The notes: generated from the sequence alone by a model not told the origin. 53,794 bases of DNA from an uncultured Planctomycetia bacterium (GCA_964466525.1 CAYXQY010000004.1:1-53794), one strand, 5' to 3'. Counted from the stretch's first letter, positions 7,093 through 30,317 are shown. Translations and numbers: made by a program.

Positions 7093-7124
7093 TTATAAGG
7101 GTTTCCGTGCACTTCGAAACGGTC

Positions 7125-8453
7125 ATGAATTCGGAACATCACCTGGAACAGACACTGGACGAGATTCCGGATGAACCCGGTGTCTACTTCATGAAAGACG
7201 ATAGTGGTCGGGTGCTTTACGTGGGAAAAGCGGTGGATTTGAACAGTCGGGTGAGAAGTTATTTTCACGATTCGACCGATCATTCACCGAAAATCCGAAC
7301 GATGCTGAAAAGCGTGCAAGATGTGGATTACCTCACGACGGACTCGGAAGTTGAAGCACTGCTCAAGGAGTCCCGGCTGATCAAAGACGTACAACCGCCC
7401 TATAACAGCCGGTTGAAGGACGACAAGTCGAAGATTCTTATACAAATAACGAAAAACGAAGATTTTCCACGTGTTGAACTTGTCCGGGAGACGGATGAGT
7501 TGAATCCTGATCAATGTGATTACTACGGACCGTTTCTGAAGGCCGGCGACGTGCGCGGGGCATTGAACGTACTGCAAAAACTGTTTCAGTTTCGGACGTG
7601 TGACCTGGATATCGAAGCGGGAGACCCGAAAAACCAGTACTTTCGACCCTGTCTTCTGTATGAAATCGAACAGTGTACGGCCCCCTGCGCAGAACACATC
7701 TCGGAAGAGGCGTACCGTGAGGATATTGAAGCATTTCAGGAGTTTCTGGAAGGAAACCGCGCTCAACTGCTTGAGGAGCTTGAAGAACGCATGTGGGAAG
7801 CCTCCGACGAACAGGCCTACGAACGAGCGGCAAAGATCAGGGATCAGATCCAGCAGATCAAAGGACTGGAACGAAAAGGTACGCTGGATGACGTCGACAG
7901 CCTCCGTGTACCTCCACAGGATCCTTCCGAGGCGCTTGAGGCGCTCCGGCAAACGCTCGATCTGGACTTCGTTCCGAGGACGGTCCATGCAACGGATATT
8001 GCATCACTTTCCGGCAGGGAAGCGGCAGGATCCGTCGTCACGTTCGTCGATGGAAAGCCGTTCAAAGACGGATACCGCCGTTACCGCATTAAATCGGTGG
8101 AGGGCGTCGACGACTACGGCATGATGAACGAAGTAATTCGGCGCCGATACATCCGGCTGCAGGAGGAGGAACAGCCGTTTCCGCACATTCATTTACTGGA
8201 CGGGGGACGCGGCCATCTCAATGCGGTGCAGGACGAATTCGATCGAATTGACATCGATCCACCGGTACTCGTTGCGATCGCCAAAAATCAGGGCGATCGT
8301 CTGTTTCTAACGGACCGCCCGGATCCCCTCGAACCGGAGGAGAATAATGAAGGGTTTCAGATTCTGCAGCATGCCCGGGACGAAGCCCACCGGTTTGCCG
8401 GTCATTACCATCGAATTCTTCGTGAGAGACGGAACGATACGGACGGTTCATAA
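7125..8453 (+). CDS. uvrC: Excinuclease ABC subunit C, short form without the C-terminal (HhH)2 domain
   Basis: GIY-YIG block (PGVYFMKDDSGRVLYVGKAVDLNSRVRSYF), UVR domain (EQAYERAAKIRDQIQQIK) and endonuclease-V-like block (IHATDIASLSGREAAGSVVTFVDGKPFKDGYRRYRIK ... LQHARDEAHRFAGHYHR). The ORF track starts at GTG 7107, and ATG 7125 is the in-frame alternative used here. Confidence 0.85.
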   Translation: MNSEHHLEQTLDEIPDEPGVYFMKDDSGRVLYVGKAVDLNSRVRSYFHDSTDHSPKIRTMLKSVQDVDYLTTDSEVEALLKESRLIKDVQPPYNSRLKDDKSKILIQITKNEDFPRVELVRETDELNPDQCDYYGPFLKAGDVRGALNVLQKLFQFRTCDLDIEAGDPKNQYFRPCLLYEIEQCTAPCAEHISEEAYREDIEAFQEFLEGNRAQLLEELEERMWEASDEQAYERAAKIRDQIQQIKGLERKGTLDDVDSLRVPPQDPSEALEALRQTLDLDFVPRTVHATDIASLSGREAAGSVVTFVDGKPFKDGYRRYRIKSVEGVDDYGMMNEVIRRRYIRLQEEEQPFPHIHLLDGGRGHLNAVQDEFDRIDIDPPVLVAIAKNQGDRLFLTDRPDPLEPEENNEGFQILQHARDEAHRFAGHYHRILRERRNDTDGS

Positions 8454-19576: not shown

Positions 19577-20943
19577 ATGACCATTGATAACATCAATCCG
19601 GCAACGGGGGAACGGATCTCCACGTACGAAGAGCAATCAACGGAGGAAGTGGAACGTGCTCTGTCACAATCCGAAGAGGTTTTTTCCTCCTGGAAACAGC
19701 GATCCATTGAATCCCGGGAAAAACGAATCGAGGCGGCGGGAGAAGTACTCCGGAACAACAACCGAAAATACGCGGACATCATGACCCGGGAAATGGGCAA
19801 GCCGATCGAGCAGGCCGAACGTGAGATTGAAAAGTGCGCATGGGTCTGTCGTCACTACGCACAATTCGCGAACGCGTATCTCGAACCGGAGGCCCATCCA
19901 AGCCCGCCGGGCTCACAGGTTCGAACCGTTTACGAGCCTCTTGGGGCGGTGCTTGCGGTTATGCCGTGGAACTTTCCCTTCTGGCAGGTGTTTCGATTTG
20001 CCGCACCGTACCTGACGGCCGGAAATGTGGGCCTTCTGAAACATGCTTCCAATGTGCCGGAATGTGCGAAAGCCATTGAAGAGGTGTTTCGTCAGGCCGG
20101 TTATCCCGATGGTGTATTTCAGACGCTTCTTATTGGTTCCGAGCGGGTGGAACGTGTCCTTGCCGACGATCGTGTAAAGGCGGCGACGCTTACCGGAAGC
20201 GGGCCCGCCGGACGGGCCGTGGCGGCTCAGGCCGGCCAGCAATTGAAAAAGACCGTTCTCGAACTGGGCGGAAGCGACCCGTTTATCGTCCTGAACGACG
20301 CCGATCTCGAAGCGGCCGCCGAAACCGGGGATTGGCCCGGAACCTGAACAGCGGACAGTCCTGTATCGCCGCCAAACGATTCATCGTGCACGACGACGTG
20401 TACGACGAGTTTCTGGATCGGTTGAAACGAGAAGTCGAGACCCTGACGGTGGGAGATCCCACGGATCCGAACACCGACGTCGGACCGCAGGCCGAGTTCC
20501 GGCTCATGGAACAGCTACACGATCAGGTGCGGAAAAGTGTGGACGCCGGAGCCAGGGTGGTTACAGGCGGGCAACCGATGGACCGGGAAGGGGCCTTTTA
20601 CAGGCCGACTGTGCTTTCGGACATACCGTCCGGCTGCCCGGGCGATACGGAGGAGCTGTTCGGTCCCGTCGCTTCGGTCTTCCGCGTGGAGGACGAAGAA
20701 GAAGCCGTAGAAAAAGCCAATGACACGTCGTTTGGCCTGGGAGCCAGCATCTGGACCGAGGATCGAACGAGAGGAAAAAAAATAGCCCGGCGGATCGAGG
20801 CCGGGTGCACGTTTATCAACCAACTGGTCAAGTCCGATCCGCGGGTTCCGTTTGGCGGGATCAAAGAATCCGGGTACGGTCGGGAACTGTCCGAAGCGGG
20901 TATCAAGGAGTTCGTCAATCGAAAAACAATCTGGGTGGAGTAG
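19577..20943 (+). pseudogene. NAD(P)-dependent succinate-semialdehyde/aldehyde dehydrogenase (Sad/YneI-like), split by a 1-nt frame break near 20327..20334
   Basis: ORFs 19577..20347 and 20332..20943 together make one roughly 455-aa ALDH. Recognisable blocks are INPATGE, catalytic LELGGSDP and GQSCIAAKRF, and the C-terminal PFGGIKESGYGRE. The join falls at a short G run (accGGGGattgg). This may be a sequencing artefact. Confidence 0.85.
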
Positions 20944-21327
20944 CCTCATGCAGGTGTCCGATCCACTCGTTTGCTGCATCGAAGAGGAGGGGGTGAACGC
21001 ATTTACGGCCTGTCCAATTCTGATTTCGGTTCAGTTCTCGGGAAGTTTCGGCGTTCGAGGATACAACACCGGTTTTCCGGATGAACTCGAAGACGTTCAG
21101 AGACGAAGAGCCCGGCTTACCGATTACCCGGAGAATCAGAGCGCCGTGAAAAAAATCGTGTGCAGATAAAAGATGTGAAGAACCGTTATCCGCAAACCGG
21201 TGATTGCTGGAAAAATAATCGGTGCATAAGCAAAGATCATCGAAAACAAGAATCCGTGAAATACGGTTCGTAGGGGGTATGGTCGGTTAATCCAGATACC
21301 GCGATTACACAAAGACCACGCGGTCAT
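20912..21327 (-). pseudogene. C-terminal relic of a polytopic membrane protein
   Basis: ORF 21136..21327 reads TVFHGFLFSMIFAYAPIIFPAITGLRITVLHIFYLHTIFF. After a 1-nt shift at an A/T homopolymer it continues as HGALILRVIGK... No N-terminal half exists, because the upstream space is occupied by the dehydrogenase gene ending at 21305. Confidence 0.25.
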
Positions 21328-22624
21328 TTTTTCGCCCGATGTCCCCCATCAGGTTTCGGCTGTCGAAGATCAGCCTGGCGTGCGTAAGTAGCTCCTGGGG
21401 TTTGTAGGCGCTGTGGTCGGTGCAGATAATGACGGCGTCGTAGTTCGACATTGCTTCAGGGTATCCGTCGATGGACGTTTTTTCGCCGGGATAGTTTCGT
21501 GAACTCGTAATTTTCGGAACATGGGGATCATGGTAGTCCACGTGTGCACCGGCTGTTTCCAGAAGTTTGAACATTGCAAGCGCCGGGGATTCTCGGATGT
21601 CGTCCACATTCGCTTTGTATGCCGCTCCGAGGATGAGGACGTCCGACGACGAAAGGGATTCATTCCGGTTGGATAAGGTCCGTTCGATCCGCCGGACAAT
21701 GAGTGCAGGCATACCGGTATTAATGTCACCCGCCAGCTCAACCATCCGTGCTTCCTGTCCCTCCTGTCTGGCTTTCCAGGACAACAGATACGGATCAATT
21801 GGTAGACAGTGTCCCCCGAGACCGGGGCCCGGGTAGAACGCTTCAAAGCCGTATGGTTTGGTTCGGGCGGCTTCGATGACGTTCCAGACGTCCACGTTCA
21901 TGTCCTGAAACAGGACCTTTAGCTCATTGACCAGTGCAATATTGACCGAGCGGTAAATGTTTTCAAGAAGCTTGGTCGCTTCCGCCTCTCGTGGACTGTC
22001 CACGGAAACCACACCGACTGTGATCTCCTGGTAAAAATCCCGGGCAATGACCGTACTTGCATCGTTCAGTCCCCCCAGTACCCGAGGGGTATTGTCGGTT
22101 GTATATTCCTTGTTACCCGGATCGAGACGCTCGGGGGCATACGCCACGTAAAACTCCTGACCGGCATCCAGTCCGCTTTCCTCCAGGATGGGTACCAGTA
22201 GCTCTTCTGTCGTACCGGGATACGTTGTACTTTCCAACACGATCAACTGGTTTGACTGAAGGTGATCTCGGGTGGTTCGTGCGGCCTGTTCGATGAATTC
22301 GGTGTCCGGCGTGCGATCTTCGTTGAGGGGGGTGGGCACACAGATGACAATGATGTTCGCGTCGTCGAGTAAGGATGCATCCGTCGTTGGGTTAAACTGC
22401 CCTGTTTCAACGAATTCCTTTATTGACTGATCGGGCACGGATTCGATGTAGGAGTTTCCCGCCTGCAGCTGATCCACTTTCTGCTGGTCCGAATCCAGGC
22501 CGACAACGGGAAATCCCTTGTTCAGGATGGCCTGCACGAGCGGAAGCCCGACGTATCCCAGGCCCATTACACAAACGTTTGCCGTGTGGTGCTTTATTTT
22601 TGATTGCAGTTCCTCGGAGTTCAT
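21305..22624 (-). CDS. Nucleotide-sugar 6-dehydrogenase of the UDP-N-acetylhexosamine type (WecC/WbpA/TviB/CapL-like)
   Basis: The N-terminal Rossmann motif VCVMGLGYVGLPLV is the GLGYVGLP form typical of UDP-GlcNAc/ManNAc dehydrogenases. A catalytic Cys block (GGHCLPID) and the C-terminal UDP-binding domain are present. Confidence 0.85.
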   Translation of the reverse strand: MNSEELQSKIKHHTANVCVMGLGYVGLPLVQAILNKGFPVVGLDSDQQKVDQLQAGNSYIESVPDQSIKEFVETGQFNPTTDASLLDDANIIVICVPTPLNEDRTPDTEFIEQAARTTRDHLQSNQLIVLESTTYPGTTEELLVPILEESGLDAGQEFYVAYAPERLDPGNKEYTTDNTPRVLGGLNDASTVIARDFYQEITVGVVSVDSPREAEATKLLENIYRSVNIALVNELKVLFQDMNVDVWNVIEAARTKPYGFEAFYPGPGLGGHCLPIDPYLLSWKARQEGQEARMVELAGDINTGMPALIVRRIERTLSNRNESLSSSDVLILGAAYKANVDDIRESPALAMFKLLETAGAHVDYHDPHVPKITSSRNYPGEKTSIDGYPEAMSNYDAVIICTDHSAYKPQELLTHARLIFDSRNLMGDIGRKNDRVVFV

Positions 22625-22758
22625 GGGGAGTTGTTGAAATGTAAAGGATCAATGAATTGTACGTGGTGTACACCGGTGAGCTGCAGAGTACAAAGACGAG
22701 TTTTTTCAACCGTCATAAGCCATCACTTTAAATGCTCAAGGACAGTGACGAGTGACCG

Positions 22759-24078
22759 TCAAAAGGGTTCCATCTCCCGACGAACTTTTTCCGGTGCAAA
22801 CGGATCATTGAATGAAGCCCGGAAGAACAACTCCTGAATTACGGCCACGATCCGGACCACCTTCAGCGCAATTTTATACGCCGGGTACAATGGAACAATG
22901 AATAACGTCTTGAGATGAGTGCTTCGACGCCGGCTCAGTATCAGTCCAACGGACACCTGAGGAAGTTTCAACAGGACATGAAACACGTAATTGGCCAGGT
23001 AGATGACCAGGAACTGCCCGGGATAGGCCAGAAAGATGTCGATAAGATAAACAGCCCAGAAAAACGTAACGATCATCGTAAAAAACAGGGTATCGACAAA
23101 GGATAAAAGATTTTGCCAGCGGAAGTGGTGGGTCCACAATCGAAACGTGTCCGGATGTCGAAACAGTCGGGTCCGAATGACATTTCGATTCCACCGGAGT
23201 CGCTGTTTGATCAACGAAGTGACTGACGTGGGAGCATTGGTCAAACAGTTTGCCCGGGGATCGAAAACAATTCGTTTCCCCAGTTTACGAATGCGAATCG
23301 TCAGGTCCGAATCGTTGCCGGGCCCGGGCTCGTGTCCGCCGACGCGTTCAAGCAGTGTTCTGGGAAACGAGCCGAACGCCCCGGACACGATGGGTAAAAT
23401 ACCGATCAGGGAGCGGAAGCACCGTCCAACCGTAATCGAAATCAGGTATTCGATGGACTGAAGCATCGTCAGCGGATTTGAAAACCAGTTTCGTACCCCC
23501 AAATTTCCACAGACCGCCCCGACGTCCTCATGTTTAAAATGTCGAATCATGTTCAGCACGGCGTCCCGATCCAGCGTGGTGTCCGAATCCATAAAGATCA
23601 CGTACTCGGACGAGGACACTTCAAGGGCGTGATTCAGCGCCGCCGATTTCCCCTGGCGTTCGTCCTGCCGGTGGAACTCAATTATGCCTTTCCGGGACAG
23701 TTCCCTGCCAATCTCTGGCGTTCGATCATCCGAACCGTCGTCAACGACAATGACCTCCAGGTTCGGATACGTCTGTTCACGAATGGACTCTACGGTCGGT
23801 CGAAGGGTGTCTTCTTCGTTAAGAACAGGAAGAATAACGGCCACCGACGGAGGATTATCCAGTGATTCCAGCTGTCGGGATTCGTCATCAAACGAAAACC
23901 GCCCCCGCAAACTGTACAACAGAACCACGAAGTCGGTGAGCACGTACCGGGGGATTTCAAGAAAAATGATGGCCCAGTAGGTTCGGATGAATGTAGTGGT
24001 TTCCATGGAGATCATAAAGTCATACAAACTCCATAGAAAACGGATCAGTTCACGAAATGAAGAAACAAACCATTCCAT
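22759..24078 (-). CDS. Processive family-2 glycosyltransferase (membrane-embedded polysaccharide synthase, PgaC/HasA/NodC-like)
   Basis: 439 aa with transmembrane segments at both ends. Motifs are VVDDGSDD, GKSAALN, FMDSDT, VSGAFGSF, GNDSDLTIRI and QRLRW (codons at about 23191..23205). Confidence 0.88.
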   Translation of the reverse strand: MEWFVSSFRELIRFLWSLYDFMISMETTTFIRTYWAIIFLEIPRYVLTDFVVLLYSLRGRFSFDDESRQLESLDNPPSVAVILPVLNEEDTLRPTVESIREQTYPNLEVIVVDDGSDDRTPEIGRELSRKGIIEFHRQDERQGKSAALNHALEVSSSEYVIFMDSDTTLDRDAVLNMIRHFKHEDVGAVCGNLGVRNWFSNPLTMLQSIEYLISITVGRCFRSLIGILPIVSGAFGSFPRTLLERVGGHEPGPGNDSDLTIRIRKLGKRIVFDPRANCLTNAPTSVTSLIKQRLRWNRNVIRTRLFRHPDTFRLWTHHFRWQNLLSFVDTLFFTMIVTFFWAVYLIDIFLAYPGQFLVIYLANYVFHVLLKLPQVSVGLILSRRRSTHLKTLFIVPLYPAYKIALKVVRIVAVIQELFFRASFNDPFAPEKVRREMEPF

Positions 24079-24099
24079 CGTTATTCTATGTATGCATCG

Positions 24100-25230
24100 C
24101 TATGAACCATCTTCCCTCGACCTGTCGATGATGATGGTTGACTCATCCTGGTGTCTTGCCTCCTGAAGCCTTGCGATCGTTTCCTCCATCAGGTGGTCGG
24201 GATCTTCAGCATCACTCATCTCTGTCAAACCAACATGCAGTTTCCATTGATGTTCGAACGGACGTTCTCCGTCTTCCAGTCTCGACGTTAGTCTGCGGGC
24301 AAAAACGCCAGCTCCTTCCCGGTCTGTTTCCGAGAGGATCATAGCAAACTGACGGTCCTGATAGACAGCGAGGAAGTCAGCAGTCCGCGTTTCATCTTTG
24401 AAAATTTCTGCCAGGCGTTTCATATCGTTGATGTATTCACCCGCCTCCATAGCCGTTTCCATCTGGTCGAGGGATAATTCAACCGGCACCGGCTCGGCGA
24501 GAAGCAGTGTTCCGGGCCGGTCATACCGTTTCGCCCTGTGGAACTCAATGGATAACTGTTCCCTGAACATTTCAAATGAAAACACGTCGATATCTTCATC
24601 GAACAGCGCCGGGCCCGATTGTGCCAACTCCAGCGACTGTTGCTCGACCGAACGGGTGCCCTGGGACGATAGTTCATACAGGTGAATTTTTCGTTCTTCA
24701 ACGCTGGATATGTCGTGTTCCTCCCCGCACGATAGACAACGGCAGGACACCTCCGGGTCCTCGAATTTATTTCCACAGTTGTCGCAGTAATACAGCGTAT
24801 TTACTTTTTCATAGTCAATGCCAATGTGTTGCAGCTCAGTGTCACATTTTGTGCAGATTAATTTCGACCCCACCTTGTGCTTGATCTCCGGTCCGACGTT
24901 GCCGCAGGAGTAGTGATGAATCATGTCCGTCAGCGTGATTCGGACCGTCCGGCAGTCGGGACAAACTTCACGAAAATTAAGGGTGTAACGACCGCAGTCC
25001 GGACACAGGTGTATACGATCCACAAGTTCCCGGTTGAGAAACCCGTCACCCGCCAGCTCCTCAAGCATTGAGATTGAAGTTGCGGAATCCAGGTCAAACA
25101 GGGCGTCGACATCCGGATAACGATACCCGGTGTCTACAGAACCGGTAAGTTCCGGTTCAAGCACATCCAGGTTCCCATTGCTCAACTGTTTGAGCAGTTC
25201 CAGTTTGGTTTCGCCTTTGACGTCCGCCAT
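24100..25230 (-). CDS. Cys-rich multi-zinc-ribbon domain (TackOD1-like) fused to a degenerate GGDEF domain with an intact I-site. Putative c-di-GMP receptor.
   Basis: CxxC pairs sit at aa 76/79, 90/93, 126/129 and 149/152, plus C163/C165/C168. The C-terminal GGDEF fold reads RTADFLAVYQDRQFAMILSETD. This aligns with the RxxD-x5-GG(D/E)EF pattern, with RxxD kept (24376..24387) and GGDEF replaced by QDRQF (24346..24360). Confidence 0.75.
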   Translation of the reverse strand: MADVKGETKLELLKQLSNGNLDVLEPELTGSVDTGYRYPDVDALFDLDSATSISMLEELAGDGFLNRELVDRIHLCPDCGRYTLNFREVCPDCRTVRITLTDMIHHYSCGNVGPEIKHKVGSKLICTKCDTELQHIGIDYEKVNTLYYCDNCGNKFEDPEVSCRCLSCGEEHDISSVEERKIHLYELSSQGTRSVEQQSLELAQSGPALFDEDIDVFSFEMFREQLSIEFHRAKRYDRPGTLLLAEPVPVELSLDQMETAMEAGEYINDMKRLAEIFKDETRTADFLAVYQDRQFAMILSETDREGAGVFARRLTSRLEDGERPFEHQWKLHVGLTEMSDAEDPDHLMEETIARLQEARHQDESTIIIDRSREDGS

Positions 25231-25239
25231 CAGAATGGA

Positions 25240-26460
25240 TTAAAACCAGTTAAAGAATTCTGTTTCCAGGGAGATGCGTACATGAACGATCATTCCGGGC
25301 CGGAGCTGTTTTTCAGGGTGTTTGAGGTCAATTCGAACGGGAACCACCTCGTATTCCAGATTCAGAGGAGAGTTTTTCCATTGATCGAGAGATGTGAAGG
25401 AACGCTCGTCCGTCCGAGCCGAACGCCGTAAATTGACGGTTCCTGTCAGTGTGAGATTCCTGTTCCCCACGACCGTGATCCTGGCCGGTTCGCCGTGTTC
25501 AAGGGCCGGATATTTCTGGACGGGAACGTACGCCTGAATCCACTGCTCCTCCTGTAAGGTGATGGAAAGAAGGGGTTCATGTTCTGACACATGTTCCTGT
25601 TCTCCTCTCATGACCTGCTGAATCATTCCGTCACGGGGAGCCCTGATGTTTAATTGCTCCCGCATCCGGCGGATCTTTTCCAGTTCGTGTTTCTTTTGCT
25701 TCACGACCGCCTGTTGTTCATTAATTTTTTGTTTTTTCTTTTTTTTCTGGTGTGTGATCGATTTCTTTGTTTGTGAGACGGTCTGCTCTACATTTTCCAG
25801 TTCCGATTTTAAACTGGAAAAGGTGGATCGAGTCACTTTAAAACGGGAGGTGAGGTCGTCGTATTTCGACTGCACCTCAAGGAATTCCGGTCTCGACACC
25901 GCTTCAAGAAGATAGAGTTTTTCAAAGCGCTCAAGTTTGTCGTTTAACTCCTCCTGCTGCTCCCGAAGACGTTTCAATTCAAGCTTTTTTTCGTCCAGCC
26001 GTGACGTGACCTGGACAACTGATCGACGGGAGGAGGTGACTCTGTTATTCCGTTCAGGATCCAGTTCCATGTTTTTCAGTCCCTGGAGTTCCTGTTTCGA
26101 CTGTTCGTAAGCAGACTTTTTTTGTTGAAGTTCAGATTGTATTACCCCGTTCTGAAGGGTCAGCAACAGATCATTTTCCCTGACAGGTGTTCCTTCGGAA
26201 ACGTGAACCGTGGTTATCGTCCCTCCTGTGCTGGCTCGAACCTGAACAGCAGGGTGAATAATCCGCCCGGTGCTTATGACATACCGGGACTCCAGATAAC
26301 TGTAGGCCATGTAAGCCAGGCCAAACAACACGATGCAACCGACGAAAACCCAGAAATACCAGGTTGTTCGTAAGGGGTCTTTCGATTTCTTCGTGGACTC
26401 CGCACGTTGTGGTTCTTCCTGTTTTTCCTTTCTGGATTTGTTCCAGCTTGTGCCTTTCAT
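25240..26460 (-). CDS. HlyD-family membrane fusion (periplasmic adaptor) protein
   Basis: N-terminal TM anchor, a lipoyl/barrel-sandwich start (SEGTPVRENDLLLTLQN), a long coiled coil that includes a lysine run, and a beta-barrel end (AYVPVQKY...VPVRIDL...LRPGMIVHVRI). Confidence 0.85.
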   Translation of the reverse strand: MKGTSWNKSRKEKQEEPQRAESTKKSKDPLRTTWYFWVFVGCIVLFGLAYMAYSYLESRYVISTGRIIHPAVQVRASTGGTITTVHVSEGTPVRENDLLLTLQNGVIQSELQQKKSAYEQSKQELQGLKNMELDPERNNRVTSSRRSVVQVTSRLDEKKLELKRLREQQEELNDKLERFEKLYLLEAVSRPEFLEVQSKYDDLTSRFKVTRSTFSSLKSELENVEQTVSQTKKSITHQKKKKKQKINEQQAVVKQKKHELEKIRRMREQLNIRAPRDGMIQQVMRGEQEHVSEHEPLLSITLQEEQWIQAYVPVQKYPALEHGEPARITVVGNRNLTLTGTVNLRRSARTDERSFTSLDQWKNSPLNLEYEVVPVRIDLKHPEKQLRPGMIVHVRISLETEFFNWF

Positions 26461-26520
26461 TTCTGTTGTGAATAAGCGTTACACGTTACCGGGGAAAATG
26501 GAGGCTCTGTCATCGAACGT

Positions 26521-28864
26521 TCATTCCGGAAGCAACGCATGTTTCATTTGATGATAGTTGTTGAGAATCACACCGCTGAACCACGGGCTCGATTGATACG
26601 GAACGGCAATGGATTCCAGGGCCTCTCGATACGCACGAGGTGTGAGGTCCGTTTTCGTTTCGTGCACTGACCTCTGGTGTTCCACAACATGCCGATTCGC
26701 GATTTCATGCCAGACGGGAACGGGCGAAGAGCTATTTGTGGCGTTCGCCGCATGGTGTAGCAATGATTCGATGTCAACCGGGTCGCTGGCGTGATATCGG
26801 ACGATGAGTTCGTCGAAACGGTCCGGAAGCCGGTTCAAAAACTGTTTGAGGGGAGGGGCATCCAGCGATTTTAGATATAAAAACGGTACGACCAGAAACA
26901 CCCGTTCATCCGGCTGCGTATTCAGAAATCGGTTCTTCTTAAGTTCTCTGGTTTGACGTATGAATGTGTCTGCGGAGACGTCGGAGATGGCACCTGTCCC
27001 AACAGCGATTGCATGAAATGGTTCGGGACTTCGTTCCTGAAAATCCAGAAGGGAGTTTAACCGGCGAGCCGCTGCCCGGGAAACGTTCATGTCCTGATCG
27101 AAAACGGAGACATGTGCAATCGTTTTTCGTTTCCGGTCCCGTATTTCGCTGATGAGGTTGCCAAGGAGTGAATCGTCCTTTTTTTGGACGGGTTCATCCA
27201 CCGTCACAACCAATCGTCTGTAGCTCATCCTCTTCAGGTATTTACGAAGAAAAGATTTCTCCGGTTCACCGGAACGCAATCGACTGAATTTCACTACGAT
27301 TCCTTTTTTTAACGGCTTTTGAGACGTTTTCTTTTTGAAATCTACATCCGTATGATCGGACATCTTTTGAAGCGGAAGATGTTTTGCGGAGGCCCCCATT
27401 GATTCAGCCAGTTCCAGGTACGTCATCGTCAGGTTGCGTTTCTCGGTCAGGATGCCCAGAACGGTTTCAAGATATAAGTGTTTCCGATCCGTGTAATACG
27501 ACCAGTTCGAAAGTGCTCCGCTATCCTGTTGAAGTTTCGCCTCTTCCAGTTCCGATCGGACACGACGGAGACGATTCCGACGATCTTTCAGCATCTGCTG
27601 TTCCGTTCGCATGGTCTCGATTTTGTCAGCTACCTCCTGCTGAATTTCGGATAGTTTCTCGTCCATTTCGGAAATAAGGGTGTTCAGAATGGCCCGTTCT
27701 TCCCTGTTTCGGGCGTTCACAATGGGCCAGTAAAGAAGCGGGATGGAATATCGTCCATCAATCGTCGGGCCGGACGTAAGGTCCTCTGAACCTCCGGTTC
27801 CATAGCTGACGACCCCTTTCGCATCAAGTGGTGTCAATTTCTTGCTTCTGATTTCTCCTTTTTCTCGCCGAAACGCCCCCTGGATCCGGGACACGTCCGT
27901 CCGTCTTGTTATCGCACTTTTGACCGCCCACGGGATCGGGGGTTTATCCGTAATTTCGGGCACCTGTGGCTTCAGTTGCAGCGGGGCGTCCACGGGACGA
28001 TTCAATAAGGTGTTCAGCGTGTTTTTCGCCTGACGAACCGTCATTTTCGTCTCCTGAAGCCGTTCGGACAAATTCTGTATGTCCCGGGTTTCTTGAAGTA
28101 TGGAGAGATCCGGTCGGACGTCGTAAAAGACACGCTGTTCCAGACGGCGTACGGTGGTGCGGGCGAGCCGGAGCCGTCTGTGAAGCACCTGTTTTCGCTT
28201 CTGTTCGAAGAGCACCCGGGCATACGCCTTCGTCGCCAGATATAATTTCTTCCTTTGCTCCCGGGCGTAGATGCTCAGGCGGGAGACCAGCTCTCCTTTC
28301 GCACGTTCAATGCCGTAGTTTCGCTTCCAGATTCCATCGATGACCGACTGGGTCAGGCTGGCAAGAATACCACCGGGATAAAACCGAGTAATGAGGTTGA
28401 ACCGGGGACCGTAGGAAACACCTTCACGATCGAGGGCGGCCCGTGCTCGAATAATCTCATGCAGCTGTTTTTTGTATCGTTGGGTTTCGTGCCTGTATTC
28501 CGGATAAAAGCCGGAGAAGATTTATGTGAGACGTTCTGGAGTTGTTTTTGTGAAACGAAACATACCCCTTACGTACAGCGTTCGTGGATTTCTCAGCTGC
28601 TTCGGTTTCCGACGTGAGTGCGTTGTGCAGGATCTGTCCCCTCTGATCTTCCGGATGCTGCTTACGAAAATCCTTGAGCCGACGTAACGCGTATTCGTCG
28701 TTTCCACGGACGTACTCCAGCAGAATGGATTCAAAGGGTTCGGTCGACTGAAGGGGATCGGGGATCCGCTTCAAATCTGTGGACGCACATCCGTACAGCA
28801 CCAGGAGTAAAAGGCAGCAGATGGCACGATGAAGCCATCGGCCGATCGTGATTCCGGTAGTCAT
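26521..28864 (-). pseudogene. TolC-like outer-membrane-factor lipoprotein with an extra ~290-aa C-terminal domain. The reading frame is broken once at about 28457..28524.
   Basis: ORF 28457..28864 starts with a lipobox (LLLLVLYGC/AS) and ends ...IQARNPTIQKTAA*. The frame of ORF 26521..28215 is open up to 28521 and reads ...QLHEIIRARAALDREGVSYGPRFNLITRFY.... This continues the OEP consensus when one base of the T/A run at about 28468..28473 is removed. Two OEP-type repeats are followed by a non-OEP domain (about 26524..27393). Confidence 0.7.
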
Positions 28865-29420
28865 GAAAGAGGGGGAACGAAAGAGTGAACATGAATCTTA
28901 CGAAATCGTCGACCGTATTGCGCGTACGATCAGCAGCACCGGCTCCATATATGACAAACGTCTACTGTACATTCGAATCGAGAATCCAATGGGGGCTTCA
29001 ACTACTGTTTTATATAAGTAGCCTGCTGAACAAAAAGAAACTTTCCGATCCCTTCACAGACAGGTGGAATATAAACGGATAATTTGCCATATGCCGTACA
29101 TATAAATTTGCGTGCAACAGGCTGTAAAAAGTGTTATGCTATACATTTCCCACCTGATATATACTGAACTGTCTCTTGAAAATGCGACGTGCCCTGAAGA
29201 GGATCAAATGAATTACAAATCGTAAGGAATGAGATAAAAAATGTTCGTACTACAGATAAATGTTCGATGTAGCACAATTTTGTTTCGGTTGTGCATGAAT
29301 TGTATACTGTCTCAACAGGGATAGCAAATATACAAATTTTGATGGGTGGTTACACTCCCGATTCTACGGATGAGTTAAGGGATACGATAAACACGTTCTT
29401 CATCATAGACAACAACTGAT
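28865..29420. promoter_or_regulatory. A+T-rich divergent control region between the polysaccharide operon and the diguanylate cyclase gene
   Basis: 556 nt without a credible ORF, and visibly A+T-rich relative to its flanks. AAATGTTCG occurs twice (29239..29247 and 29258..29266), and TATACTG(aa)CTGTCTC-like words occur at about 29161 and 29304. Confidence 0.4.
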
Positions 29421-30317
29421 ATGAGGTTTAAACCGAACTTCCTGCAATCCGAAATCCATACAACCGCCAATCAATCCGTTCCGCTCCGTGGATTGGTTTT
29501 GAGCTTCCTTGCTCTGCTCGCCACGTTTATCGTGTATCTTCTCTGGCCGGCCTCCGCCGATAAATACGTGGGTCTGGTCTGGATTTTCAGTTTAATTCCC
29601 CTATTCCTGCTGGCGTATTACAGAGGGATGTGGGGGACGGTGTATGCGGCAACGGCGACCATGATTGCTTTTGGATTGGCCGAGATAATTAGCGTCTTGT
29701 ACCTGGACCAACAATTGAACTGGTGGCTTTACGGCATCGTCGTTGGACTATTGCTTGTGGTGACCCTGTTCACCGGGTGGCTGTCGAGCAGGCTGATCGA
29801 GGAGCGAGAGGAAGCCATGCAGATGGCGTTCAAAGACCCGCTTACCGGGCTCGAGAGTCGTCGGGCACTCGACTTTTATTTTGACAAGCAGGTTGAGGAC
29901 GCCCGCCGCGGACATCAACTGAGTATTGCCTTTTTTGATCTCGATGATTTCAAACATTACAACGACGAGTATGGACACGACGCGGGCGATCAGATTCTCA
30001 GGAAAACGGGGCAGGTATTGCAGGAGAACACAAGGAATGCGGACCTCACCGGTCGATTCGGTGGTGAGGAGTTTCTTTCGATCCTCTCCGGCGAAGCAGA
30101 AGAGGGGGCGAAGATTTTTGCCCAGCGGGTGTGTTCGGACATTGCCGAGATGGATTCACCGCATCCGGATCCACCGACTATCAGCGGGGGGGTCGCGTCC
30201 TGGTCCGAAGATATGGACGAGAAACAGGAGCTGCTTGACCGGGCGGATAAAGCCCTGTACCGGGCCAAGGACAGGGGCGGAAACCTGGTGGTTACATGGT
30301 CGGAAATGGAAGCGTAG
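29421..30317 (+). CDS. Membrane-anchored diguanylate cyclase (GGDEF domain, predicted active)
   Basis: Four to five N-terminal TM helices, then DPLTGLESRRAL...FFDLDDFKHYNDEYGHDAGD...RNADLTGRFGGEEFLSIL. The GGEEF active site and the RxxD I-site are both intact. Confidence 0.9.
   Translation: MRFKPNFLQSEIHTTANQSVPLRGLVLSFLALLATFIVYLLWPASADKYVGLVWIFSLIPLFLLAYYRGMWGTVYAATATMIAFGLAEIISVLYLDQQLNWWLYGIVVGLLLVVTLFTGWLSSRLIEEREEAMQMAFKDPLTGLESRRALDFYFDKQVEDARRGHQLSIAFFDLDDFKHYNDEYGHDAGDQILRKTGQVLQENTRNADLTGRFGGEEFLSILSGEAEEGAKIFAQRVCSDIAEMDSPHPDPPTISGGVASWSEDMDEKQELLDRADKALYRAKDRGGNLVVTWSEMEA

Follow-up and report, generated by a model that had tools for sequence, protein, structure and literature searches.

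How can a polysaccharide leave the cell when the operon encoding its synthase also encodes an HlyD-type adaptor and a TolC-type outer-membrane channel, and no inner-membrane pump? We addressed this question for a locus within a 53,794-nucleotide (nt) stretch of DNA from an uncultured Planctomycetia bacterium (GCA_964466525.1 CAYXQY010000004.1:1-53794), to which we refer, at its full length, as the window. Five minus-strand genes of this locus encode an outer-membrane factor (OMF) lipoprotein, an HlyD-type adaptor, a protein with a TackOD1 and a degenerate GGDEF domain, a family 2 glycosyltransferase (GT2) and a nucleotide-diphosphate (NDP)-sugar dehydrogenase, and a diguanylate cyclase is encoded divergently (Table 1). 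An initial annotation, made from the sequence alone, had proposed that these genes form an undescribed exopolysaccharide synthase system controlled by cyclic diguanylate (c-di-GMP). We find that four of the genes constitute a core that recurs in many unrelated genomes, and consider it reasonably probable that the locus is a c-di-GMP-controlled, synthase-dependent exopolysaccharide secretion module resembling the Mxd system of Shewanella.

To describe the locus we scanned the six operon and cyclase proteins with Pfam and NCBIfam models, comparing bit scores with the cut-offs of the models. The Pfam scan supported the domains initially assigned to all six proteins (dehydrogenase, GT2, GGDEF, HlyD, OEP and cyclase), and the coordinates and the gaps between the five minus-strand open reading frames (ORFs; 134, 21, 9 and 60 nt in coordinate order) were as first described. 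The absence of a PilZ domain from the six proteins and of an ATP-binding cassette (ABC) transporter gene from the operon was likewise confirmed.

A four-gene core recurs in unrelated genomes

The gene-neighbourhood search that the initial annotation had suggested as a check revealed a conserved arrangement, so that the lack of conservation which it had named as a refutation did not materialize. The loci found support a four-gene core, consisting of the TackOD1/degenerate-GGDEF protein (hereafter the receptor candidate), the GT2, the HlyD adaptor and a lipoprotein OMF with an additional C-terminal domain, and the recurrence of this neighbourhood in many unrelated genomes is more than chance. 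The module was present in Planctomycetota, Gammaproteobacteria, Desulfobacterota, Hydrogenedentota and KSB1, and on an Aeromonas plasmid. Its closest relatives (L003 and L006-L009; 39-62% identity), one of them from a metagenome-assembled genome (MAG) named 'uncultured Planctomycetia', share the gene order of the window, namely OMF fusion, HlyD, receptor and GT2. Elsewhere the same genes are permuted: two gammaproteobacterial MAGs and a Hahellaceae MAG have the order receptor, GT2, OMF fusion and HlyD, while in Desulfoluna butyratoxydans, D. spongiiphila, D. limicola, related Desulfobacterota and Hydrogenedentota the GT2 gene comes first, followed by those for the receptor, an OEP protein of ~1000 amino acids (aa) and HlyD, and permuted core orders also occur in Planctomycetota and KSB1 loci. 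In nearly all bacterial loci examined the receptor gene adjoins a homologous GT2 gene, and OEP and HlyD-like genes usually follow.

In the gene and Pfam tables of those loci whose flanking genes were examined, we saw no gene of the ABC, major facilitator superfamily (MFS) or resistance-nodulation-division (RND) type, suggesting that the synthase itself replaces the inner-membrane transporter.

The Aeromonas caviae plasmid pKAM345_3 (NZ_AP024951; L035/L036, 26660-29020 and 1-3462) carries the whole module on a 29-kb mobilizable (MOBP) replicon, where the genes are annotated as 'diguanylate cyclase', GT2, 'TolC family protein' (694 aa) and 'HlyD family adaptor', and where the GT2 gene runs across the origin of the record. 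The receptor gene is also present on another A. caviae plasmid (NZ_AP024139). The four-gene module is evidently capable of horizontal movement.

Regulatory genes border the module in some genomes. Directly upstream of it, D. butyratoxydans (L019, 2125-6114) has genes for a PAS histidine kinase and a sigma-54-dependent response regulator, which suggests sigma-54 control of the module in this species. A gene for a LapD-like c-di-GMP receptor (LapD_MoxY_N-HAMP-GGDEF-EAL) directly precedes the TackOD1, GT2 and HlyD genes of Photobacterium sp. DA100 (L034, 5290-7293).

The TackOD1 protein has the signature of a c-di-GMP receptor

The receptor candidate had been described as a Zn-ribbon protein with a degenerate GGDEF domain. 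The degenerate GGDEF domain was borne out (aa ~215-365; Pfam GGDEF, 28.2 bits), and the region taken for a Zn-ribbon corresponds to the Pfam domain TackOD1 (PF18551; aa 7-187, 167.5 bits, cut-off 32), with five CxxC motifs and one HxxC motif (CPDC76, CPDC90, HYSC106, CTKC126, CDNC149 and CLSC165) and a CRC at aa 163-165. No transmembrane (TM) helix was predicted in the protein.

Active cyclases have the motif RxxD-x5-GGDEF, in place of which the receptor candidate has RTAD-x5-QDRQF. The possibility that it is itself an active diguanylate cyclase was rejected on this substitution, as GG[DE]EF is absent. R282 and D285 are invariant in a 12-sequence alignment, and among 143 aligned sequences (drawn from 150 diverse representatives) the arginine is kept in 136 and the aspartate in 141. 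The five positions replacing GGDEF are variable, with no GG in any of the 150 diverse relatives. A family profile matched solved GGDEF domains at E 1e-18 with the RxxD in register, and in an AlphaFold2 (AF2) model (mean predicted local distance difference test, pLDDT, 76) the C-terminal half adopts the GGDEF fold, with a template-modelling score of ~0.8 to 3ign and 4urg. By its signature, the protein would thus be an I-site c-di-GMP receptor analogous to PelD and PssE.

The family is large. An exhaustive HMMER search returned 960 representatives of 50% identity clusters at E<=1e-30, where a word-indexed search had found only 12 full-length relatives, and many members have the architecture REC-TackOD1-GGDEF. 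The database names of 10 of these clusters say nothing more than 'GGDEF domain-containing protein', and no fusion of receptor and GT2 was found among the long members. In Sumerlaeota (L030, 5949-9062; also L015 and L021), the genes next to a family member encode a T2SS-G-like pseudopilin and two beta-helix (NosD-like) proteins.

Could this protein act on DNA rather than on the synthase? TackOD1 was defined by Galperin et al. as an output domain of response regulators, its function was called obscure, in bacteria it is frequently fused to GGDEF, many bacterial members being REC-TackOD1-GGDEF proteins, and a similarly Cys-rich insert of PriA touches DNA (PMC5847659). A c-di-GMP-responsive transcription factor, whose Zn-ribbon binds DNA and controls the operon, would also fit with the predicted solubility of the protein and with TackOD1 proteins that adjoin machineries other than GT2. 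We nevertheless consider such a factor unlikely: Pfam detects no helix-turn-helix or other known DNA-binding domain in the receptor candidate, its tight and near-universal adjacency to a single GT2 subfamily, whose cytoplasmic tail is conserved, speaks for a partner protein, and in work on Shewanella MxdA is regarded as an effector that acts on the machinery (PMC7666153).

The synthases form a GT2 subfamily with a conserved tail

The GT2 is membrane-embedded and of the processive type, with predicted TM helices (Pfam Glycos_transf_2, 127 bits), and contains all the motifs initially listed for it (DDGS113, DSD164, NDSD255 and QRLRW292). Its best NCBIfam match is PgaC_IcaA (TIGR03937), which reaches 173 bits where the cut-off is 422, and two CelA models score 48 and 33 bits (cut-offs 699 and 992). 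With E. coli PgaC it shares 29% identity over 356 aa (124 bits), compared with 35% full-length identity (253 bits), cytoplasmic C-terminal tail included, with the GT2 of the Desulfoluna module. Since the GT2s encoded beside TackOD1 are more alike than they are to E. coli PgaC, we assign them to a subfamily of their own.

The C-terminal tail of these TackOD1-associated synthases (residues ~415-439; 22759-22830 on the minus strand of the window, and the same region in L019 and L033) is conserved, as seen in the sequences …ELFFRASFNDPFAPE… and …EFFRINYQEGYLPE…, and has no counterpart in E. coli PgaC. We regard it as a candidate docking site for the receptor.

The adaptor and a TolC-type channel with an additional domain

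The adaptor matches Pfam HlyD_3 (57.8 bits) and HlyD_D23 (49.5 bits) and has one N-terminal TM helix (aa 38-56) and a long coiled-coil region. In related loci its homolog sits after the OMF gene. It falls below the NCBIfam cut-offs of RND_mfp and of the type I secretion HlyD model (TIGR01843; 79 bits versus 208.65). Type I secretion identity was rejected on the latter score and on the absence of an ABC gene from the window operon and from related loci with examined neighbours.

Once a frameshift in its gene is repaired (see below), the OMF is a 780-aa protein in which Pfam OEP matches aa 124-288 at 36.4 bits (cut-off 22), as a single repeat where homologs have two; the NCBIfam NodT lipoprotein model gives 19.8 (cut-off 210). 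A word-indexed homolog search returned three proteins only, the profile query included. The lipobox Cys is conserved among homologs, and the initial annotation, which named an OMF lipoprotein, did not mention a C-terminal region of ~280 aa. Ahead of the OEP repeats, residues ~35-80 (28600-28770, minus strand) form a short N-terminal helical segment conserved across clades, with invariant P37, F44, L48, G54, A59, P71, D73, R75 and L79 (alignment A2), which has a TPR-like look and no Pfam match.

The OMF fusion is homologous over its length across clades. No Pfam family matched its C-terminal region, either for the window protein or for a profile of 17 such domains. The 17-domain profile did match PDB 10yv_A, 'Putative GH97 from Cellulomonas fimi', at E 6e-16, sharing with it the motif LDxEP(H/W)..P.W, and the Aeromonas 'TolC family protein' also carries this hydrolase-like domain (hhalign 96%). 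Judged by this profile similarity, the domain looks like a glycoside-hydrolase-like barrel in most homologs. The acidic LDxEPH motif is missing from the clade of the window, whose domain has diverged and is probably non-catalytic, and whose kinship with the domain of the other clades is suggested mainly by position and collinearity.

A frameshift interrupts the OMF gene

The OMF had initially been presented as one gene, a reading that passes without comment through a +1 frameshift at a run of six A residues. The span of the gene is 2344 nt, which is no multiple of 3, and it is split into two ORFs: an N-terminal one of 135 aa (28457-28864) that contains the signal peptide and lipobox Cys (LYGC) and is terminated by a stop, and the main OEP frame (26521-28521), which lies in a different frame. 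The run carries one A more than in intact homologs, and removal of one A restores a protein that can be aligned over its whole length, junction included, with unbroken homologs of 776-802 aa; the repaired segment reads ...NPTIQKQLHEIIRARAALDREGVSYGP..., matching ...NSTIQRKLSEVLRSRAILDRKNISFGP... in L003. Programmed frameshifting was ruled out, as the zero frame has no X XXY YYZ heptamer there and neither a stop nor a slow codon adjoins the site, and is also disfavoured by the homologs, all of which are unshifted.

The frameshift is either a homopolymer sequence error or a sign that the system is inactive in this genome. If the OMF is truly frameshifted, the locus could be a decaying pseudogene cluster that exports nothing, whatever its ancestral function; apart from the frameshift itself, the deposited annotation, which has only a 564-aa OMF fragment (P0024), and the lack of the conserved acidic motif from the C-terminal domain agree with decay. 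However, the remaining genes are undisrupted, with their catalytic motifs preserved, and the acidic motif is missing also from the intact homologs L003, L006 and L007, so that its loss does not indicate recent decay. Moreover, a housekeeping-type aldehyde dehydrogenase gene (19577-20943, plus strand) is split at ~20330, close to a G4 run, by a frameshift of one base into overlapping ORFs of 256 aa (Pfam positions 8-255) and 203 aa (263-461), and this second homopolymer-associated frameshift makes an error in the contig sequence at least as likely as real OMF decay. We therefore regard a pseudogene cluster as rather doubtful. Other overlapping ORF pairs were rejected as further frameshifts, being the separate genes adk/map and rpsD/rpoA.

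Genes and regions outside the core

The dehydrogenase contains three UDPG_MGDP_dh Pfam domains and matches the NCBIfam NDP-sugDHase model (TIGR03026) at 435 bits; its closest affinity is with UDP-ManNAc and UDP-GlcNAc dehydrogenases, with every equivalog model below its cut-off, and its nearest solved structures are 4r16 and Cap5O. It had been counted as a gene of the system, a status that did not hold: the closest homologs of the module have no dehydrogenase beside them, and nucleotide-sugar dehydrogenases recur in four loci, namely the window, KSB1 L016 (TuaD-like), and L038 and L039 (TviB-like). The enzyme is thus a probable precursor-supply accessory outside the conserved core.

The operon of L038 and L039, which are metagenome or MAG contigs with Por_Secre_tail and LytTR genes, encodes a protein of 530-660 aa, a protein of ~350 aa, a TviB-like UDP-GlcNAc dehydrogenase, a TackOD1 protein and a GT2, with genes for a hybrid kinase and a LytTR regulator ahead of it. 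The proteins of 530-660 aa and ~350 aa matched neither the OMF nor the HlyD profiles. As the large upstream proteins of L038-L040 are unmatched by the OMF-fusion profile, these loci were not counted as duct-bearing.

The divergent cyclase has four TM helices and an intact RNAD-x5-GGEEF motif, with the GGEEF at residue 214. Both this intact motif and the A+T-rich nature of the spacer before the gene (39.6% GC, versus 54.1% for the window) were confirmed. No related locus examined has a cyclase at this position, and since a GGEEF cyclase is never a conserved neighbour, a dedicated role for it in the system is only a guess. The spacer matched no Rfam family, c-di-GMP riboswitches included, and scans for promoters and terminators yielded nothing above chance.

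UvrC proteins usually extend past their RNase H-like endonuclease domain. A UvrC-like ORF elsewhere in the window (7107-8453, plus strand; 448 aa) stops after this domain and looks short, and could be another truncation or frameshift.

Table 1. Features of the locus, with positions in the window.
Feature	Position	Strand	Basis
NDP-sugar dehydrogenase ORF	21305-22624	-	ORF call
GT2 ORF, 439 aa	22759-24078	-	ORF call
Receptor candidate ORF, 376 aa	24100-25230	-	ORF call
Codons of R282-T-A-D285 (RxxD I-site motif) in the receptor gene	24376-24387	-	
HlyD-type adaptor ORF, 406 aa	25240-26460	-	ORF call
OMF gene, interrupted by a frameshift	26521-28864	-	ORFs and three-frame translation
Additional C-terminal domain of the OMF, ~287 aa	26524-27384	-	No Pfam family
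A6 homopolymer at which the OMF reading frame is lost	28468-28473	-	Sequence read
Divergent A+T-rich intergenic region, 556 nt, presumed promoter region	28865-29420		
Membrane-anchored diguanylate cyclase, 298 aa	29421-30317	+	Pfam GGDEF (139 bits), TM prediction

A model for pump-less secretion and its alternatives

These results are consistent with a model in which the inner-membrane GT2 would polymerise a UDP-sugar and thread the growing chain across the inner membrane, the polymer here probably containing N-acetylhexosaminuronic acid supplied through the adjacent dehydrogenase. The single-TM HlyD-type adaptor would span the periplasm and meet a trimeric lipoprotein channel of the TolC type, whose periplasmic C-terminal domain may trim or process the chain in most lineages and is probably structural in the clade of the window. 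The soluble receptor would bind c-di-GMP at its RxxD motif and turn the synthase on, probably through contact by the TackOD1 Zn-ribbon. The initial annotation had proposed a similar logic, in which the cyclase makes the c-di-GMP that the receptor senses; the part that concerns receptor, GT2 and duct fits the conservation of RxxD, the adjacency of the GT2 and the loci without pumps, while the dedicated part given to the cyclase is only a guess, as no cyclase is a conserved neighbour.

Several observations weigh against this model. Plesiomonas and Photobacterium have the receptor, GT2 and HlyD genes without an adjacent OMF, and an Omnitrophota locus (L017) has only receptor and GT2, without OMF and HlyD, so that the duct is not obligatory beside the synthase. 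In Sumerlaeota, REC-TackOD1-GGDEF genes lie beside pseudopilin-like genes and away from GT2, and archaeal TackOD1 has been linked to type IV pilus loci (PMC5847659), so that the domain is not specific to synthases. The OMF is frameshifted in the window, its AF2 model (pLDDT 47, from a 4-row alignment) is too poor for use, and homology of the C-terminal domain of the window clade to that of other clades is undemonstrated by profile comparison (hhalign E 0.008, probability 5%).

The loci that lack an OMF next to the GT2 also raise the question whether adaptor and channel carry the polymer at all. They could serve another substrate or anchor the hydrolase-like domain, with the product of the GT2 (an oligosaccharide, or else a glycan that is periplasmic or lipid-linked) taking another route; NodC, which synthesizes oligosaccharides, is among the relatives of the GT2 (98 bits, NCBIfam), and the authors of a study of TolC and mixed-linkage glucan in Sinorhizobium meliloti concede that the role of TolC there may be indirect (PMC13438883), a point that also weighs against our model. 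Yet the GT2 would be the adaptor's sole partner wherever flanking genes were examined, as no inner-membrane pump gene occurs in these loci, and the fusion of OMF and hydrolase-like domain is specific to this module. We accordingly judge a role outside polymer export to be quite improbable, and retain the synthase-adaptor-channel duct as the preferred reading.

A broader proposal, which we put forward tentatively and hold to be possible rather than probable, is that TackOD1 supplies the missing link in a fifth, widespread type of synthase-dependent polysaccharide secretion. A soluble (REC-)TackOD1-degenerate-GGDEF adaptor would integrate c-di-GMP, and in many lineages phosphorylation, and dock on the conserved cytoplasmic tail of a PgaC/HAS-like synthase, and HlyD together with a dedicated TolC-type channel fused to a periplasmic glycoside-hydrolase-like domain would export polymers that often contain uronic acids. 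Such an architecture might comprise ~960 clusters at 50% identity in >10 phyla, Shewanella Mxd included. In the literature that we searched, TackOD1 as the hallmark of the receptor, the fusion of OMF and hydrolase-like domain and the breadth of the family appear to be undescribed.

The family provides a concrete functional setting for TackOD1, and could inform the polymer, the export route and the activation mechanism of Mxd, which has been known genetically since 2006. Cultured carriers are available in Desulfoluna, Plesiomonas and the Aeromonas plasmid, while the present locus, a frameshifted copy from an uncultured bacterium that is probably a planctomycete, is of limited value in itself.

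Comparison with known systems

To which of the named synthase-dependent systems does the module belong? PgaABCD/IcaADBC contains the closest curated GT2 family, which has the same D, DxD, D, QRxRW motif set. E. coli senses c-di-GMP at the PgaC-PgaD interface, not through a GGDEF-type receptor. Pga membership was rejected on the sub-cut-off GT2 score given above and on the absence of PgaD, PgaB and PgaA among ten flanking ORFs (14.9-34.8 kb, Pfam). Membership of Bcs, Xcs or Bgs was likewise rejected, as the CelA scores are far below cut-off and no PilZ match was found in the six proteins.

A precedent for the putative receptor is provided by PelD and PssE, in which a catalytically dead GGDEF domain that keeps RxxD is the c-di-GMP receptor of a polysaccharide machine (PMC4125290, PMC7112168). 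PelD is membrane-anchored, has a GAF domain and partners the GT4 PelF, whereas the receptor of the window is soluble, carries TackOD1 and is encoded with a GT2, and Pel membership was rejected on these differences. PssE partners the cellulose-synthase-like PssC in a Gram-positive. Unlike the window system, both lack TackOD1 and an adaptor/OMF pair.

The closest parallels to the proposed duct are Bgs and Xcs. In S. meliloti, BgsA/BgsB combines a c-di-GMP-activated GT2 with an HlyD-family adaptor, and a tripartite complex with TolC has been proposed (PMC13438883, PMC5567048); in August 2026 tolC proved essential for the mixed-linkage glucan made by BgsAB (PMC13438883). The window locus likewise has an HlyD-family adaptor and a TolC-type channel together with its synthase. 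BgsA, however, is cellulose-synthase-like and binds c-di-GMP by its own C-terminal domain, whereas the GT2 of the window is PgaC/NodC/HAS-like and its putative sensor is a separate protein; and Bgs uses a housekeeping TolC encoded elsewhere, whereas the window operon has a dedicated OMF with an additional domain. For cyanobacterial cellulose, an XcsA/XcsB(-XcsC)-TolC tripartite model has been proposed and is not experimentally validated (PMC12430437, citing Maeda 2018). Xcs shares with the window a GT2, an HlyD-like adaptor and a TolC-like channel, and its accessory endoglucanase XcsC is functionally analogous to the hydrolase-like domain; it differs in that XcsA is homologous to BcsA and carries a fused PilZ domain, and TolC and XcsC are separate genes with no fusion.

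The duct principle, having already been proposed for Xcs and Bgs, is not new. The passage of polysaccharides through TolC-type ducts has become testable only lately (Bgs-TolC, 2026). With synthase, adaptor, dedicated channel and receptor candidate in one operon, the present family offers a better test of the duct than systems that borrow the housekeeping TolC.

The nearest overall likeness is to mxdABCD of S. oneidensis MR-1 (SO_4180-SO_4177), which makes the initial view that the locus corresponds to no named system doubtful, as do the GT2-HlyD-TolC conduits proposed for Xcs and Bgs. MxdA is a degenerate-GGDEF, c-di-GMP-binding effector (PMC3691769, PMC3409153, PMC7666153), thought to activate the Mxd exopolysaccharide machinery, that also binds CheY3 and a cyclase (PMC7666153, PMC3409153, PMC3691769, PMC11395469). 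MxdB is a membrane GT2, MxdC an efflux-pump homolog and MxdD a hypothetical protein (PMC3691769, PMC3409153, PMC7666153, PMC11395469); mxd is required for a three-dimensional biofilm, and an exopolysaccharide product is presumed (PMC3691769, PMC3409153, PMC7666153). Two published mxd promoter primers gave 0 matches each against metagenome contigs, and plasmid searches returned no Shewanella record. None of the retrieved members of the receptor family carries an NVDEF motif of the kind ascribed to MxdA. In the Mxd literature found by full-text search, TackOD1, the fusion of OMF and hydrolase-like domain and a tripartite duct are undescribed for Mxd.

Compared by these published descriptions, the two systems share the same composition, in that a degenerate-GGDEF effector, an adjacent GT2 and efflux-like components are encoded in one operon, all of which are present in the window. 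The GT2 gene of the window lies immediately downstream of the receptor gene, as MxdB lies beside MxdA; the A-B-C-D order of Mxd is matched gene for gene by the loci of the OFTM106 MAG, Hahellaceae and the Aeromonas plasmid; and the interaction of CheY3 with MxdA parallels the REC-TackOD1-GGDEF fusions of the receptor family. The window differs in its gene order, C-D-A-B followed by the dehydrogenase, and in a receptor without the ~105-130-aa N-terminal extension of gammaproteobacterial and Desulfoluna receptors. Likened in this way to Mxd as published, the system of the window is probably a distant, rearranged and locally frameshifted Mxd relative.

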